Shown piece after piece: positions 1 to 15,097 of a stretch of 64,000 nt of DNA. The stretch lies in assembly GCF_048403405.1 (NCBI RefSeq), contig NZ_CP183129.1; one strand, written 5' to 3'. Each line of letters opens with the position of its first letter. Within the stretch, counting starts at the first letter, position 1. The stretch is from Escherichia coli (GTDB lineage Bacteria > Pseudomonadota > Gammaproteobacteria > Enterobacterales > Enterobacteriaceae). The notes below the pieces were generated by a model. That model worked only from the letters and a program-made list of their open reading frames with translations. It did no database searches and had not been told where the DNA came from. A program made the translations under genes and the position numbers.

Positions 1-455
1 CTCAACGTGATACTTTTCAGCATTCCCGTAATTTCACGATGTAAACGCGCTTCAATCGGCAAGATTTTCGGTATTTTTATCGCACCATCAAGGACTTTTA
101 TGCCAACACAATGATAGCTCGATTGTCTGCCGTGTTTACTTTTAAAGGTTGGTTTACCTGCTTTCAGTTTCGGATTGAAAAAGTTAGAAAAAGCCACGTC
201 GAGGTTAATTACCGCCTGCTGCAACGCAATAGAATCATATTCTTTAAGCCATCCATACCGGCGGGATTTCTTCGCCACTGCAAGCAGTGGTTTGAGGTCT
301 TTACGCGGGTTTAAATTTACGCGGTGCCGCTGGTAAGAATGTTTCTTGATATGCAGAGCTTTGTTGTACGCAAAACGCACTGCACCGAACTGGGCGTTGA
401 TAAATTCAGCCTGTTCTGGTGTCGGGTAGATGCGTACTTTTGTTGCTCTTAACAT
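1..455 (-). CDS. tnpB: IS200/IS605-family TnpB (OrfB, RuvC-like RNA-guided nuclease family), N-terminal ~151 codons only; 3' part lies beyond the window start
   Basis: Minus-strand frame open from ATG (revcomp of 453-455) to the window edge with no stop; translation MLRATKVRIYPTPEQAEFINAQFGAVRFAYNKALHIKKHSYQ... resembles the OrfB_IS605 N-terminal domain. Absent from the ORF track because it has no stop inside the window. Confidence 0.7.
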   Translation of the reverse strand, partial: MLRATKVRIYPTPEQAEFINAQFGAVRFAYNKALHIKKHSYQRHRVNLNPRKDLKPLLAVAKKSRRYGWLKEYDSIALQQAVINLDVAFSNFFNPKLKAGKPTFKSKHGRQSSYHCVGIKVLDGAIKIPKILPIEARLHREITGMLKSITL

Positions 456-511
456 AATCAGCGCTCATTGATATAATGCTTTTATTTTAACACTTTAGGT
501 AAATATATCAA

Positions 512-937
512 TTGAGTAATCATGATGATTTACTGGCGGGATTCCTCCGCAAACGACACAGTGTCAGTAAGCTGGTTGTGCACCTTATTTTTACGACAAA
601 GTATCGACGTAAACTATTCGACAGTCAGATGATCGCTCAGTTGCGTGAGGCTTTTGGCTCCGCTGCGGCAAAGCTTGAATGCGAAATTATTGAGATGGAC
701 GGGGAGCCAGACCATGTACACCTGCTGGTTGCCTACCCGCCAAAACTGGCGGTCAGTGTGATGGTCAATAATTTAAAATCGGTATCATCACGTTTGCTAC
801 GCCAGCAGAACGCGCATTTACGTATGCAGAGTAAAACGGGGCTTTTGTGGTCGAGATCGTACTTTGTCTGTAGCACCGGAGAGGCAACGATTGAAACGCT
901 CAGAGCCTACGTTCAGAGTCAGTCAACACCTGATTGA
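512..937 (+). CDS. tnpA: IS200-like Y1 HUH transposase TnpA
   Basis: 141-aa ORF with an HVHLLV (HuH) motif and a C-terminal Tyr region (SRSYFV), size typical of IS200 TnpA; divergent from tnpB. Start at TTG 512 is uncertain. Confidence 0.8.
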   Translation: MSNHDDLLAGFLRKRHSVSKLVVHLIFTTKYRRKLFDSQMIAQLREAFGSAAAKLECEIIEMDGEPDHVHLLVAYPPKLAVSVMVNNLKSVSSRLLRQQNAHLRMQSKTGLLWSRSYFVCSTGEATIETLRAYVQSQSTPD

Positions 938-942
938 TCTTT

Positions 943-1066: not shown

Positions 1067-3813
<2,747 letters not shown>

Positions 3814-3836
3814 GGCATGCTCCAGGCCGAAAAAGC

Positions 3837-4493
3837 CTAGCGTAATGGAATGATATCGCCTTGCCAACCCTGTGATGAACGCTGACCGACTAACAATAAT
3901 GAACCACGATCGGCGCGAACGATGAGACGACCATGTTCATCCCATAGTGCACTGTTACCACGGGCATTTGCCATCAGCACGGCAATTGAGTACTGATGTG
4001 AAAAAAATTGTAAGCGGCGGGTAGATGCCAGTAGGTCGGGTTCCCCCAGACATTGCCCTGTCGTAAACAGTGAACAGGTCGGATCCATATCCATACCTTC
4101 CGGTTGTTCATCGACCACCGTGATGGTTCTGGAACGACGGCCCAGACATGCACCATGACTCTGATGGTAGATCCCTGGTGTTTTTCGCCACGGTGCGAAC
4201 ACCGCAATTCCACGAATAAAGCGATCGTTATATTCAACGGGAAGGCCGGCAATGATGGTCATTCGCCAGGTCGTTGCAGCATAACAAAGCGGGTCTAACA
4301 GCGAGAGATCGGGTGGGGCAGGAAGGGCACGTCGCGAATAATCACACCCCAGTAAAGAAAGCGATGGAAAAACTAACAGCTGACATTGTTGCCTGGCGGC
4401 GGCCCTCACAAACTCCAGATGATGAGCTACCTGTTCGGTCAGTGAGGTTTTACGAGGCTCATATTGCGCTGCTGCAACTTTCCAGAACGACAT
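3837..4493 (-). CDS. yobB: C-N hydrolase (nitrilase superfamily) protein
   Basis: 218-aa ORF in the conserved position between holE and exoX. Confidence 0.85.
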   Translation of the reverse strand: MSFWKVAAAQYEPRKTSLTEQVAHHLEFVRAAARQQCQLLVFPSLSLLGCDYSRRALPAPPDLSLLDPLCYAATTWRMTIIAGLPVEYNDRFIRGIAVFAPWRKTPGIYHQSHGACLGRRSRTITVVDEQPEGMDMDPTCSLFTTGQCLGEPDLLASTRRLQFFSHQYSIAVLMANARGNSALWDEHGRLIVRADRGSLLLVGQRSSQGWQGDIIPLR

Positions 4494-8270: not shown

Positions 8271-9710
8271 TCAGGCGTTACCGGTAAAAAGTTTCCCGTC
8301 GCGCACCAGTTCACGCGGGTAGCTGTTTTTCAGTCGCGAACCAATTCGTTTGGCTAAACCAATCGGCTGATGCTGGAAAGTAACCAATACATCATCCGCC
8401 ACTGGCGCGGCTTGCGGGTAAACATCGCGCCCGCGATACCACTCTTCCGCTTCCTGCGGTGTCAGTTCAAAAGCGTTCACATTGTCGGGGGAGGCAAGGG
8501 CAATAACCGCTTCATGCTGCCAGCGATAACCTTTGTTATGCGTTTCGGCAAGTTTAATCCCCAACCGAGAAAATCGGACTTTACCGATCATGGCTTCAAT
8601 GCCCACCGGGAACAACCACAGTTCTTTGTCGCGTTGCCAGAGTCGCAGGTTTCCATCCCAGTTTAAGCCAACACTTGCAGCCGCCTGACGAATTTGTCCG
8701 GCTTCGCGATCTTTCACCGGGCTAAACGGAAAATTACTGACTTTGTATTTTGGGGCGGGTAACGCAGGAATCGCCTTGGTTTTACGCAGACGAGCAACGA
8801 AGAAGCCTTCGCAGTCGTAAATTTGTGGGAAAACATGCAAAAAGCCTTCTTCGGTCAGTGCCTTGTCCGCACCAGGGAAGAGATTGCCAAGCGGTAAAAA
8901 CTCTACTGCGTCGGGGTAAGTCTCTTTCAGCCACCGGCAGACGGCTTCATTTTCTTCCTGGTTTAAGGTACAGGTCGAGTAAACCAGCGTACCGCCAGGG
9001 CGTAATGCATGAAAGGCGCTGTCGATCAGTTCCCGTTGGGTAGCTGCGATTTCCTGATTGCTTTCTGGTGACCAGTTTTTTAGCGCATCGGGATCTTTAC
9101 GCACCACGCCTTCGCCGGAGCAGGGAGCGTCCAGCAAAATGGCATCGAACATTTCTGGCAACGCCGCACCAAACACGCGGCCATCAAAATGTGTGAGCGC
9201 AACATTACTGATACCACAGCGGCTGATATTGGCATGTAACACTTTTACCCGACTGGCGGAAAACTCATTGGCAAGGATTGCCCCTTCGTTATTCATCCGC
9301 GCAGCAATTTGTGTCGTTTTGGAACCTGGTGCAGCAGCGACATCCATCACCCGCTGTGGTGCATTACCGTCAGCAAACAAGGCGGCAACAGGCAACATTG
9401 AACTGGCTTCCTGAATATAAAACAGGCCGCTTAAATGCTCGGCGGTACTACCCAACGGCAATGCATCTTCATTGTCGCGTTCAATCCAGAAACCTTCTTC
9501 ACACCACGGAATTGGCGTAAGCGTCCAGCCATAAGGGGCGGTTAATTGCAGGAAATCAGCAACGGAGATTTTCAGCGTATTAACGCGAATACTGCGGCGC
9601 AACGGGCGCTGACAGGCGGCAAGAAAATCATCAAATGAGAGCGTCGAAGGCATTGCTTCGCGCATTTGTGTCAGAAAGGCGTCCGGGAAATAAACGGTGT
9701 GTTGGGCCAC
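8271..9710 (-). CDS. rsmF: 16S rRNA m5C1407 methyltransferase
   Basis: ORF 8271-9716; GTG start at 9710 gives 479 aa ([15 protein letters not shown]...); SAM-dependent methyltransferase motifs. Confidence 0.9.
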
Positions 9711-9789
9711 GAGCATGTACCACTGGCAAAAAAACAGGCGCGCAGTTTAGCATAAACGCTCCGGCGCAGGCACGCCGGAGCAGTGGGCA

Positions 9790-12423
9790 TTATTTGGGCA
9801 GCGCAGTTCCCCATTCACGCCACTCTTTCGGTTCACTTTCCTGCAACAGGAAGTGCTTGCCTTCCTGGGCTTTCGGTGCCAGTGGCGTACCCGGAGGCGT
9901 GGCGAAGGCGATGCCGCCACGGATAAACTGGTTAAAGGTGCCGGTTTTCACTACGCCGCCCGTCAGACCAAAGTCCAGACTATAACCCGATGCCAACCAG
10001 AAGACGGAATTGTTACGCACCAGGTGTTGATAGCGTTTACTGATGCGCATCGCAATCATCACGCGATCTGACAATGTCCCCAGCGTCATACCTGTAACCG
10101 TACCGACTTCCAGACCACGGAACAGCACAGGTGTACCGATGCCTAACGAACCGGCTTCCGGCGCTTCAACAATAATGCTCAAGCCATCCAGGTAACGCGA
10201 ATCAGTAATGGTAGCCTCTTGTAATTCAAAGTCGCGCCGAGGATTGCCCCGGCCTGGTTCGACGTTGATATACGGCTGGAGGATAGTATCAAGATGCTCA
10301 ACGCCAGCTGCCGAAATTTGCGGTGTGACCACTGAGAAGCGCGTACCACCGCGAGCAAAGGTCTGGACATATTCCGGATAGAGCACCGCCTTTGCCTGTA
10401 CTTCATTGCGCGCGGTAATCAGATCCAGCGTCTGGATTTGCCCGATATCAATACCGAGATAGCGAATTGGCATCCCGACCGCCAGTTTTCCGGCATCGAA
10501 AGCGTGAAGCGTAATCTGCCCGCCAACCGCACGGGCTGCTGTTTCGGAAGCATACAGAATACGCTTGTCGCCTTTACGCTGACTGGCGCTGGCACCGCTG
10601 AGGTTATCGAAGCTAATAGCCCCCTTTAATGCTCTGGAGAGCGGGGATGCCTGTACAGTCAGACCACTACCATTCAGCTGAACTTTCGCCCCACCTTCTG
10701 CCCAGAACACGCTGTTGCTGGTCAGAAGGTTGCGATACTCCGGCTTAATATGCAGATCGATATCAAACGCGTTAGCTCGCGGACGCACGGTAATAACTTC
10801 ACCAACTTCAAATTTACGGTACAGCACTACCGATCCTGCCTGCACATCCGGCAGCGTCTCTGCACTCAAACTCACGGTTGTGGTGGGTAAATCGCTAAGG
10901 CTGTTCTCCAGCGCTTTTTCCAGATTGGCATACAGTGGATAGCTGGCTTTCATCTCGCCTTTATCGCCTGGCAGAATACGTATCCCGCCGTTAATCCATT
11001 CTGAGGCGCTGGCACCAAGAAACTCAACGCCATCCAGCCCCACCTTCACGTCGACACGGCTGTTGACGACAAATTTGCTATCGCCTTTTACCAGTTCGCG
11101 ATGCTGAGGCTCGATGGCGACGGTAAAGGTAACGCCTTTGCTGGTGAGTTTACGATCAATAACCTGGCCTACCTGCACGCCGTGAAGAATGAGCGGCTGA
11201 CCAGCATCAATGCCGTAACTTTCTGGTGCTGTCAGGGTCAGTGTCAGAACATCCGGCTCTTGTAGCAGGGCTTTTTCACCTGGCACAACAACGAACTCTT
11301 TGCGTGGCTCGCCATCGCCGGGCACCAACTCAAAGGTTTTTCCGGTCAGCAGGGCGCTGAGATTGGCATCGCTAAGGGATAATTTCGGGTTGCGTAATTC
11401 GATGCGGGTATTTTCACGAAGCAGGGTGACGACGCTGGGATCAACGGTCATTTCCCCAGTGACTTTACCACCAGGATTTAAATCCAGTTTAGTCAGCTGT
11501 CCGACTTCCAGCCCCTGATACATTAACGGCGTCGAGTCGGCGGTTAATCCGGCCCCACTCGGCAGTTCCAGTTTGATTATTACGCCACGCTGGCTATGGG
11601 CCAGGTCTTCATACAGACCAAAGGTATCTTCCGCCTCGGCAGGTTTCGACTCTTCTGGTGAATCGAAGGCAATCGCACCGTTAACCAGTGCCGCCAGACT
11701 TTCCAGTTTCACCTTCGCGCCACTGATACTGACGTTGGCATCAACGCCGGAAACGTTCCAGAAACGGCTACCTTTTTTCACCAGGTCGGTAAAACGCCGC
11801 TCGATCAGGACATCAATCACCACGCCTTGCTTGTTGGGATTGATGGCATAGTCGTAGACTTTTCCCACCGGGATCTTACGGAAATAGACCAATGAACCGC
11901 TGTTCAGTGAACCGAGATCGGGGGCTTGCAGGTGGATCATCAGATCGCCATTGTCCAGCCGATATTTCGGTTGGGTATCGAGTGCGACAAAGTGATCCTG
12001 CTCTTTACCTTTACCTGGCATCATGCCGATATAGTTACCACCGACGAGGGCATCCAGCCCGGAGACACCTGCCAGCGAGGCCTTTGGCGTCACCAGCCAG
12101 AACTGTGTCTCTTCGCGCAGCGCATCTTTCATATCGGACTTGATGCTGACCTTGACTTCAATCTTACGAAGATCGTCGCTCAGGCTGATATCCTGCACAG
12201 TTCCGACTTCAACGCCCTGATAACGAACAGGCGTACGGCCTGGAACAATACCATCCGCCGACATAAAGTCGATGGTGACGGTATTACCCCGGTCCTGATA
12301 ACTATCCCAAATCAGCCAACCGGCAATCATTAGCGCGATGAATGGCAGCAGCCAGAAAGGTGAGATACGGCGTTTATTTTTAATCTGCGCTTCAGTCGTC
12401 GAAGCGGGCGTTTCCTGACTCAT
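9790..12423 (-). CDS. letB: MCE-domain lipophilic envelope-spanning tunnel protein LetB (YebT)
   Basis: ORF 9790-12465; start at [19 protein letters not shown]... gives 877 aa; repeated MCE domains. Confidence 0.9.
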
Positions 12424-13675
12424 GTGCATCCCAAAGTAAGCGGCTGTCCAGCCATTCCACAGCAAGAATAGTCAAAATTACCGCTGCGCCGAAATAAAAC
12501 GCAGCCGGTCCCATAGTAAAAGCGAGGATCTGATCGCGATTAATCAGCGACATGGTTAAAGATATGACAAACAGGTCGAGCATCGACCAGCGACCAATCC
12601 AGGTCACCATCCGCAGTAACAGAATGCGTGTGCGTAAACCTTGCTGGCATTTAAAATGAATACTCAACAGTAAAGTGAACATGACGATCACTTTAGTAAA
12701 CGGTACCAGAATACTGGCGATAAACACGATTCCGGCGACCGCAATGTTGCTACTTGCCAGCGACATAATCCCGGAAAGAATTGTATCTTCCTGCCGGCCA
12801 CCATTCAGATAAATGATAGAAATAGGCAACAGGTTGGCAGGTAACAATAAAACGATTGACGCTAACAGCGCCGCCCAGCATTTTTGCAGACTATGACGGC
12901 GACGCAGGCGTAGCGGGATATGGCAACGCGGGCAGCGACCACGCTGATCAGGATAGCCGGTAAAATGGCACCCAAGACAGACACGGAGTTTCTCGTCTCT
13001 ACAGGTAGCGGGGCGCTGTGGATAAAATCGCTCCCACAGTTCTTCGACATTGAGATGTGACAACGTCACCGTCGTTAAAATCACTAACGCCACAAAAGAG
13101 AACAAGCCGACACCCGCCTGGATATGGGCATAATCCTGTACCTTTATAGAAGCAACGCCAATGCCGACCAGGTAGATATCGAGCATTACCCACTCTTTCA
13201 GTCGCTCAAGCATCAGCAGTACCGGACGTAGATTCATTCCCAGTCGGTTACCAAACCATAAATAAGCTATGGAGGTCACCAGAATGAGGGGGGCACCAAT
13301 AACGCAGAAAAAGACCATTGATCCCGTTATCGCATCGCCCTGTTTGGTCATTTGCCAGATGCCTTGCATAACGTTGGCGTCAATACGAATGCCTAACAGC
13401 CAGATATGCAACAGCGGTTCGCCCCAGGCAAACGGCATAAGCAACAGCATAGTGAAGGCCATTGCCGCCAGGCGCGTTAGCGACCAGTCGCGCCCGTCAC
13501 GAATTTTTGCCTGACAGCGCGGACAATAGGCACTTTGATGAGAATTTATCTCGGGCAGGCTAAACAGCATGTCACATTGCGGGCAACGTTGGTAATCACC
13601 ACGCGGCAGTTCCTCACCGATAGCCCTCACTGTTATCTTTTTTGTCGGCGTAATTTGTGGTGTGTTAAGAGCCAT
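12392..13675 (-). CDS. letA: PqiA-family inner membrane protein LetA (YebS)
   Basis: 427-aa ORF with Cys-pair zinc-ribbon-like motifs and transmembrane segments; overlaps the letB start by 32 nt. Confidence 0.9.
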
Positions 13676-13804
13676 GACGTGCCAAATGTAATAAGAATTA
13701 ACATTAATCTTAACCCATGATGGGAATGATCTTGAGCATTAACGCATTTAATGCTTATTTTAATAGGCTGGCAGTTCCAGGTAAGACAACCAAGTGATTA
13801 TATA

Positions 13805-14302
13805 ATGAACAAAACAGAATTTTACGCGGATTTAAATCGCGACTTTAACGCGCTGATGGCAGGAGAAACCAGTTTTCTGGCAACGCTTGCGAACACCAGT
13901 GCGTTGTTATATGAGCGTCTCACTGACGTAAACTGGGCAGGTTTTTATTTGCTTGAGGACGATACACTGGTGCTCGGACCATTTCAGGGCAAAATTGCCT
14001 GTGTCCGGATACCCGTCGGGCGCGGCGTGTGCGGCACTGCGGTTGCCCGCAATCAAGTGCAGCGTATCGAGGATGTTCATGCGTTTGACGGGCATATTGC
14101 CTGTGATGCGACGAGTAATTCTGAAATTGTTCTGCCGCTGGTGGTGAAAAATCAGATTATTGGTGTTCTCGACATCGATAGTACCGTCTTCGGTCGCTTT
14201 ACAGACGAGGACGAGCAAGGCTTACGTCAGCTTGTGGCACAGCTTGAAAAGGTGCTTGCAACGACGGATTACAAAAAATTCTTTGCGAGCGTCGCAGGAT
14301 AA
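13805..14302 (+). CDS. msrC: Free methionine-(R)-sulfoxide reductase (GAF domain)
   Basis: ORF 13751-14302; start at MNKTEFYADLNRDF... giving 165 aa. Confidence 0.85.
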   Translation: MNKTEFYADLNRDFNALMAGETSFLATLANTSALLYERLTDVNWAGFYLLEDDTLVLGPFQGKIACVRIPVGRGVCGTAVARNQVQRIEDVHAFDGHIACDATSNSEIVLPLVVKNQIIGVLDIDSTVFGRFTDEDEQGLRQLVAQLEKVLATTDYKKFFASVAG

Positions 14303-14398
14303 TCAACGGATAACGTAGCATTTACTGATAGCGTCATTATAATGACGCCTGTTCATGCCTGCGCTTGTTGGCTACGTCCGTTGTAATCAGGAAATTTC

Positions 14399-15097
14399 AT
14401 GGAAAATCAACCTAAGTTGAATAGCAGTAAAGAAGTAATCGCGTTTCTGGCCGAACGTTTTCCCCACTGTTTCAGTGCGGAAGGTGAAGCGCGTCCGCTG
14501 AAAATCGGTATTTTTCAGGATTTGGTCGATCGTGTTGCCGGGGAAATGAACCTGAGCAAAACGCAATTACGATCCGCTTTACGTCTCTACACTTCGAGCT
14601 GGCGTTATCTTTACGGTGTTAAACCCGGCGCAACGCGTGTCGATCTTGACGGCAACCCATGCGGTGAGCTGGACGAGCAACATGTAGAGCATGCTCGCAA
14701 GCAGCTTGAAGAAGCGAAAGCGCGTGTTCAGGCACAGCGTGCTGAACAGCAAGCGAAAAAACGCGAAGCTGCCGCAGCTGCTGGTGAGAAAGAAGACGCA
14801 CCGCGACGCGAACGCAAGCCACGTCCGACCACGCCACGCCGCAAAGAAGGCGCTGAACGTAAACCTCGTGCGCAAAAGCCGGTAGAGAAAGCGCCAAAAA
14901 CAGTAAAAGCACCTCGCGAAGAACAGCACACCCCGGTTTCTGACATTTCAGCTCTGACTGTCGGACAAGCCCTGAAGGTGAAAGCGGGTCAAAACGCGAT
15001 GGATGCCACCGTATTAGAAATCACCAAAGACGGCGTCCGCGTCCAGCTGAATTCGGGTATGTCTTTGATTGTGCGCGCAGAACACCTGGTGTTCTGA
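14399..15097 (+). CDS. proQ: RNA chaperone ProQ (FinO-like)
   Basis: 232-aa ORF with a Lys/Ala/Glu-rich linker; immediately upstream of prc. Confidence 0.95.

Follow-up and report, generated by a model that had tools for sequence, protein, structure and literature searches.

The window analysed here, a 64,000-nt stretch of Escherichia coli DNA whose positions are used throughout, carries two overlapping genes encoding components of an envelope lipid-transport complex. The features of this locus are the following:

13675..12392, minus strand: coding sequence of letA (yebS), 427 aa, an inner-membrane protein of the PqiA/YebS family
12423..9790, minus strand: coding sequence of letB (yebT), 877 aa, with seven MCE domains and an N-terminal transmembrane (TM) helix
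12394..12392, minus strand: TGA stop codon of letA, read from the open reading frame and its translation
12423..12421, minus strand: ATG start codon of letB, an ATG in 75/75 species and the site of an INRI-seq peak
12392..12423, minus strand: dual-coding overlap of 32 nt, encoding part of H418 through D427 and the stop codon of LetA, and M1-T10 plus 2 nt of E11 of LetB

The frame of letB is +1 relative to that of letA and reaches its stop at 9790. The identity of both products is well supported: LetA matches TIGR00155 with E=4e-211 and 701 bits (cut-off 260), which places it in the PqiA/YebS family, and contains two stretches of Pfam PqiA, while the Pfam MlaD (MCE) domain was found in seven stretches over the 877 aa of LetB, after its N-terminal TM helix. 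Orthology with yebS-yebT is accompanied by the same synteny, with msrC, proQ and prc on one side and rsmF and yebV on the other, and the locus was found in 5424 of the 5426 complete E. coli genomes, with a DNA identity of 96-100%. The RefSeq annotation of yebS and yebT in K-12 DH10B and in strain 118UI gives the same 32-nt overlap, as do the MG1655 starts listed in the INRI-seq table (1916258 for yebS and 1917510 for yebT), and an overlap of 32 bp is stated in the 2026 Nature paper on LetAB (PMC13017536). The locus is the known letAB operon and its overlap is equally known, being already annotated and published; the original prediction, made from the sequence of this DNA, that the two genes overlap by 32 nt is borne out by the coordinates, by the RefSeq annotation and by the published statement.

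An overlap of this size is not in itself surprising, since simple arithmetic, (61/64)^10, indicates that, given a start located inside letA in another frame, the letA frame would stay open for 10 further codons in ~60% of random sequence. What exceeds chance is the conservation of the geometry. The locus was recovered for 80 Enterobacteriaceae species in GTDB, 75 of which could be aligned gap-free, and the overlap geometry is identical in 71 of these 75. In the remaining four species the TGA of letA is changed to GGA, so that letA ends 12 nt further downstream and the overlap grows to 44 nt.

All these considerations depend on the position of the letB start, which the original prediction had chosen at ATG 12423. 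This ATG is invariant in all the 75 Enterobacteriaceae species, and 12423 is also the exact point at which substitutions cease to follow the frame of letA and begin to follow that of letB. The sites that vary often from 12465 to 12424, namely 12461, 12458, 12446 and 12428, all fall on the wobble base of letA codons; in the frame of letB each would be the second base of a codon, where changes would be non-synonymous. Inside the overlap the situation is reversed: the variable sites, 12409, 12400 and 12394, fall on the wobble base of letB codons, and their changes are silent for LetB but not for LetA. Codons of letB from the 12th onward display ordinary third-position periodicity, and codons 12-31 are under protein-level selection in the letB frame. 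Experimental support is provided by INRI-seq, in which the -30..+153 region of each E. coli gene was translated as an isolated fragment in PURExpress with retapamulin, in five replicates. A peak was obtained at the annotated yebT start in 5/5 replicates (29.8 to 69.1 CPM), within the 12-18 nt window of this start, and these data list no other start for yebT. Using short fragments in a purified system, INRI-seq is blind to long-range mRNA structure and to upstream ribosomes. As regards other datasets, the in vivo Ribo-RET values of Meydan 2019, re-tabulated in the INRI-seq study, are zero for both yebS and yebT, the LetB N-terminus is not among the TRAINSPOTTER N-terminomics supplements searched, and letA and letB are absent from the supplements of Burkhardt 2017. 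Together, the invariance, the frame switch and the INRI-seq peak confirm the chosen start.

Because the start codon is conserved and the frames switch at 12423, the alternative starts located upstream and downstream are excluded. Three of them belong to the open reading frame of letB:

12427..12429, minus strand: ATG (MHMSQ...), which would give a 38-nt overlap
12463..12465, minus strand: TTG opening the longest ORF in the letB frame, which would give a 74-nt overlap
12328..12330, minus strand: ATG of LetB codon 32, the first canonical start downstream, which would leave no overlap

Gene callers can misplace starts, and ATG 12429 precedes the chosen start by just two codons. This upstream ATG is lost in 18 of the 75 species (ACG in 16 and ATA in 2), and it has no Shine-Dalgarno (SD) sequence of its own because it overlaps the GGGA described below. 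The TTG is replaced by TTT in three species, and substitutions between 12465 and 12424 track the letA frame only. As for Met32, the codon is ATG in 45 species, CTG in 14, TTG in 9, CTC in 4, CTT in 2 and TTA in 1, so that it encodes leucine in 30/75 and is a leucine codon unable to serve as a start in 21/75; moreover, it lies within the TM helix (residues 14-45), and the residues which precede it (12-31) are conserved as protein. The INRI-seq peak matches the window of the annotated start, and the N-termini of the distant orthologues and of PqiB have a matching length. We consider a mis-assigned start extremely improbable. In particular, a downstream Met abolishing the overlap, the one finding that was to overturn the original prediction, is excluded by a codon 32 which is not conserved and lies in the TM helix, and by the protein-level selection on codons 12-31.

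With the start established, both frames of the overlap are translated and substitutions are restricted to match, as expected of a dual-coding stretch. LetA residues 418-425 and LetB residues 1-8 are invariant or nearly so in the 75 species, and the few variable sites are either letB wobble positions or belong to a hot spot at codon 9/426. Cryo-EM shows no density for LetA 419-427 nor for LetB 1-13: the dual-coded stretch comprises disordered tails only, the C-terminal one of LetA and the N-terminal one of LetB. For this reason the overlap costs the two proteins little.

The original prediction called for a comparison of orthologues. An initial protein homology search returned only close relatives; distant relatives of LetA (32-50% identity) were obtained by searching representatives of 50%-identity clusters, and the contigs which encode them were compared. 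The junctions were as follows:

L084: LetA identity 50%, partner of 878 aa, TGG + 7 nt + ATG, 56-nt overlap
L086: LetA identity 44%, partner of 881 aa, TGG + 7 nt + ATG, 38-nt overlap
L089: LetA identity 37%, partner of 876 aa, TGG + 7 nt + ATG, 11-nt overlap
L091: LetA identity 38%, partner of 838 aa, TGG + 7 nt + ATG, 38-nt overlap
L087: LetA identity 39%, partner of 877 aa, ATG 47 nt after the Trp codon, 8-nt overlap
L088: LetA identity 39%, partner cut by the contig end, 25-nt gap
L093: LetA identity 34%, PqiB-like partner of 538 aa, 7-nt gap

The register of the letB start is the same in L084, L086, L089 and L091, which agrees with the start chosen in E. coli. Since the register relative to the Trp codon is usually kept while the length of the overlap varies, the conserved feature is the position of the start and not the length of the overlap.

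The junction also stands out at the nucleotide level, where three features were delimited:

12379..12478, minus strand: island of nucleotide-level conservation, defined by the lowest wobble-entropy windows in 75 species
12429..12432, minus strand: weak Shine-Dalgarno-like GGGA, within LetA codons W415-D416 and separated by a 5-nt spacer from ATG 12423
12441..12454, minus strand: small hairpin UGGCU-GGAC-AGCCG, 18-31 nt upstream of the letB AUG

All the 25 lowest wobble-entropy windows of 10 codons, out of 1057, fall within 12478..12379, with a minimum of 0.125 bit versus a median of 1.30. Over the first 3.2 kb of letA-letB the mean column entropy in the 75 species is ~0.58 bit, and it drops to 0.06-0.12 bit over 12475..12416. 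The junction is thus the strongest outlier of synonymous-site conservation in these 3.2 kb and the most conserved DNA of the operon. Among 5424 E. coli genomes, 5175 carry the central 85 nt of the island with 100% identity, and only 202 reach 99% or more over the surrounding 701 nt. Low entropy within the overlap follows from dual coding. The island stretches further, ~45-55 nt upstream of the letB ATG into sequence coding for LetA only, where the third positions of CTG, AGC, CGC, TTA, CTT and GCA codons are nearly invariant. The simplest reading is that the island corresponds to the ribosome-binding region of letB embedded in letA. The GGGA, invariant in 75/75 species, is the putative SD of letB, with an energy of -4.0 kcal/mol for the duplex with the anti-SD, versus -8.9 for that of pqiB. 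The hairpin at 12441..12454 keeps its 5/5 pairs in 75/75 species, two of them via G-U, and the sole frequent change is located in its loop (12446); variation is too low for covariation to be assessed. A U-rich tract lies in the putative ribosome-binding region as well.

A different explanation of the island is that its ~100 nt serve chiefly as a regulatory element in their own right, for instance an attenuator, an RNase site or a sequence bound by an sRNA or RNA chaperone, to which the overlap would be incidental. Synonymous-site conservation reaching ~45-55 nt upstream of the AUG indeed exceeds the footprint of a minimal SD and start codon, and terminator-like hairpins near the island are enriched on the coding strand (4 versus 0.4 expected). 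The terminator-like hairpin at 12505..12483 was rejected as a maintained element, being intact in just 40/75 species. An Rfam scan of 9000..15000 returned no match and a promoter scan of 12200..12700 no promoter-like site, while the fold of the 111-nt junction (-27.8 kcal/mol, for the local fold only) is not unusually stable when compared with shuffled sequences (z = -0.64). In this fold the mean unpaired probability from -20 to +15 of the letB start is 0.47, versus 0.43 overall. The search for a noteworthy third-frame or antisense ORF over the junction was likewise negative, with just an unsupported 26-aa ORF on the plus strand (12338..12418). As an embedded ribosome-binding region and dual coding account for most of the island, we judge a separate element to be very unlikely.

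The overlap had been taken by the original prediction as suggestive of translational coupling between letA and letB. According to a 2025 review of reporter studies, coupling is best when the start lies at -4 to +3 nt from the stop and declines faster with longer overlaps than with longer gaps; one systematic series found none at -25 nt. With a spacing of -32 nt, letA/letB lies outside the range of about -4 to +3 nt of termination-reinitiation pairs, which extends, at lower efficiency, to starts a few tens of nt downstream of the stop. A long overlap alone does not exclude coupling, however, because the coat-lysis pairs of RNA phages, cited as exceptions in the same review, couple at -38 and -50 nt. 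Genuine coupling would mean that LetB synthesis depends substantially on ribosomes translating letA, and two routes are possible. In the first, proposed for the coat-lysis pair of phage fr, ribosomes terminating at UGA 12394..12392 would move back by ~30 nt to AUG 12423. In the second, ribosomes translating letA would melt an mRNA structure which hides the letB start region. Several features are in keeping with such a dependence: the letB start lies upstream of the letA stop in a single operon whose products belong to a single complex, its SD is weak, the 32-nt geometry is conserved across Enterobacteriaceae and a small conserved hairpin precedes the AUG.

Four lines of evidence, in addition to the spacing, argue against it. 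Firstly, the products are far from equimolar in the complex: the published structure contains six LetB and one LetA, and consequently a 1:1 hand-over of ribosomes cannot supply most of the LetB. Secondly, the isolated letB start region (-30..+153) initiates in vitro without any translation of letA, and far better than the start of letA itself, for which the INRI-seq peak is only 6-8 CPM despite a ~9-fold higher abundance of its fragment in the pool (541 versus 59 CPM) and which has almost no SD (-1.5 kcal/mol). Thirdly, as regards melting, the local fold predicted for the junction does not exceed shuffled sequence in stability, and, as regards the geometry, overlap length is not conserved in the distant orthologues. 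Finally, the functional selection of the LetAB study took as its wild-type reference a refactored plasmid in which the two genes do not overlap (PMC13017536). In addition, judging from typical ribosome footprints, a ribosome terminating on letA and another initiating on letB would have their P-sites 26 nt apart; they would stand shoulder to shoulder, and therefore frequent translation of letA would more likely hinder than help initiation on letB. Coupling thus finds no support in these data, and we regard it as rather unlikely.

The explanation which we favour, and which we consider probable, is that letB initiates autonomously at a site embedded in letA, the overlap being a by-product of the placement of the start. 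It builds on established findings, namely the gene overlap, the letB start codon, the pattern of conservation, the initiation in vitro on an isolated fragment and the 6:1 stoichiometry. Translation of letB would begin at AUG 12423, inside the 3' end of letA and 7 nt after the conserved Trp415 codon, and the Trp-Asp codons (UGGGAU) probably double as the weak SD element. The ~45-55 nt located upstream would form, together with the first letB codons, a ribosome-binding region which constrains the synonymous sites of letA. The overlap would arise simply as the letA frame, shifted by one base, runs through the first letB codons to its first stop, a run-on that measures 32 nt in most Enterobacteriaceae, E. 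coli included, and has other lengths elsewhere. In vivo, most of the LetB would come from ribosomes initiating afresh at the embedded site, which would permit more LetB than LetA (6:1 in the complex) to be made from one mRNA, and the rare ribosomes translating letA would at most modulate the letB start through transient occlusion or unfolding. A more elaborate scheme, in which the start is hard-wired 7 nt after the Trp415 codon in several gammaproteobacterial lineages and the ~100-nt island is a translational set-point element (weak SD, hairpin and U-rich tract) fixing a ~6:1 LetB:LetA synthesis from a single mRNA, possibly with a trans-acting RNA or protein, is speculative and in our opinion unlikely.

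These results leave our understanding of lipid transport and of translation unchanged, and their main value is practical. The start and the putative ribosome-binding region of letB lie within the last ~80 nt of letA, and a chromosomal letA deletion, a C-terminal tag or mutagenesis in this region would also alter the N-terminus or the expression of LetB. It is because the letB start region is inside letA that the authors of the LetAB study refactored the genes before deep mutational scanning (PMC13017536). To the published description we add modest refinements, namely the anchoring of the start to Trp415, the recognition of the junction as the most conserved DNA, the drift of the overlap length and the dual coding of disordered tails. 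The letAB pair appears as a small and clean example of an overlap produced incidentally by the position of a start and limited to the disordered tails of two proteins.

Several known systems can be compared with this one. The letAB of E. coli K-12 is the same locus, with proteins of 427 and 877 aa, a 32-nt overlap and 98-100% DNA identity, and nothing of substance distinguishes the two, the window being from another E. coli strain. The classic translationally coupled pairs trpE-trpD, galT-galK and rplK-rplA (-4/-1/+3 nt) are likewise made of adjacent co-directional genes of one operon whose products belong to one complex, but letA and letB are spaced by -32 nt and their products are present at 1:6 and not in equimolar amounts. 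The coat-lysis pairs of RNA phages fr and MS2 (-38 and -50 nt) are similar in geometry, with a start located tens of nucleotides before the upstream stop and in another frame. In these phages, however, the lysis start becomes active only through translation of the coat gene or its termination, whereas the letB start region initiates alone in vitro, and its local fold predicts no stable occluding structure. In the paralogous operon pqiA-pqiB-pqiC of E. coli, a PqiA-family membrane protein is again followed by a multi-MCE protein. A conserved D-[S/P]-R-L-x-W-D motif is found at the end of the A protein in both systems, and PqiB presents, as LetB does, a similar short N-terminal tail ahead of its TM helix. 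The junctions differ: pqiA and pqiB are separated by a 4-nt gap and do not overlap, pqiB has a strong SD (GAGGAG, -8.9 kcal/mol), and pqiB and pqiC share a classic 4-nt overlap. When isolated in INRI-seq, the pqiB start is weak (0-14 CPM), whereas that of letB is clear (30-69 CPM).

The junction at which letB begins within the last 32 nt of letA (12392..12423) was absent from two of the 5426 complete E. coli genomes, and in one genome of the same set it occurred a second time, on a plasmid record. Among the Enterobacteriaceae relatives fetched for comparison, four loci from Citrobacter spp. and Superficieibacter electus (L014, L029, L032 and L062) present GGA in place of the letA stop TGA, at the position equivalent to 12394 in the window. 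Their LetA is four residues longer, since letA there continues for another 12 nt to a TAA stop and overlaps letB by 44 nt.

Three other records deserve comment. The letB frame is broken in Citrobacter amalonaticus AUH_CA_2023_1 (L008), which presents a 742-codon open frame and whose alignment is lost near the 3' end, and in Kluyvera ascorbata ATCC 33433 (L061), where the register shifts about 150-350 nt past the start; either pseudogene formation by frameshift or errors of assembly may account for these interruptions. The record CACSKA010000003.1 (L065), titled Chryseobacterium sp. 18061, bears an Enterobacteriaceae-type letAB with a LetA identity of 79% and an unchanged junction; contamination or mislabelling of the assembly is the probable explanation.

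letA also contains a terminator-like element, which precedes the letB start by about 60 nt:

12483..12505, minus strand: terminator-like hairpin with an 8-bp stem (GCTGCGTT/GGCGCAGC), followed by GGTAATTTTG

Between 12200 and 12700, four terminator-like sites were observed versus 0.4 expected from shuffles, all of them on the coding strand. All eight pairs of the hairpin are intact in only 40 of the 75 species aligned, and two-sided changes at 12503/12485 occur in some cases.

At its other end, letA was considered through its annotated ATG, the anti-Shine-Dalgarno (anti-SD) duplex and INRI-seq, the cell-free mapping of start sites on isolated gene fragments:

13673..13695, minus strand: letA start region

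The annotated ATG is essentially without a Shine-Dalgarno (SD) sequence, the best anti-SD duplex reaching -1.5 kcal/mol, and the INRI-seq signal at this start is only 6-8 CPM despite an abundant letA fragment (541 CPM). Conservation within letA is lowest over its first 60 nt or so, and published work describes an N-terminal extension of LetA of about 25 residues as dispensable.

By transfer of annotation from strain 118UI, from which the window differs by only 3 mismatches across the first 1100 nt, the start of the window is predicted to fall within ISEc46, an IS200/IS605-family element (about 1..940) adjoining ptrB, with these features:

1..455, minus strand: tnpB/InsQ of ISEc46, cut
about 512..937, plus strand: tnpA of ISEc46

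Finally, the paralogous pqi operon of E. coli K-12 was compared, using its sequence and INRI-seq Table S2:

2260..3900 of the K-12 record L083: pqiB, paralogue of letB

In that table, pqiA gives 56-79 CPM and pqiC 203-301 CPM, but peaks at the isolated pqiB start region are weak or absent (0-13.7 CPM), even though pqiB has a strong SD and is separated from pqiA by a 4-nt gap. pqiB might be the true coupling-dependent member of the family.
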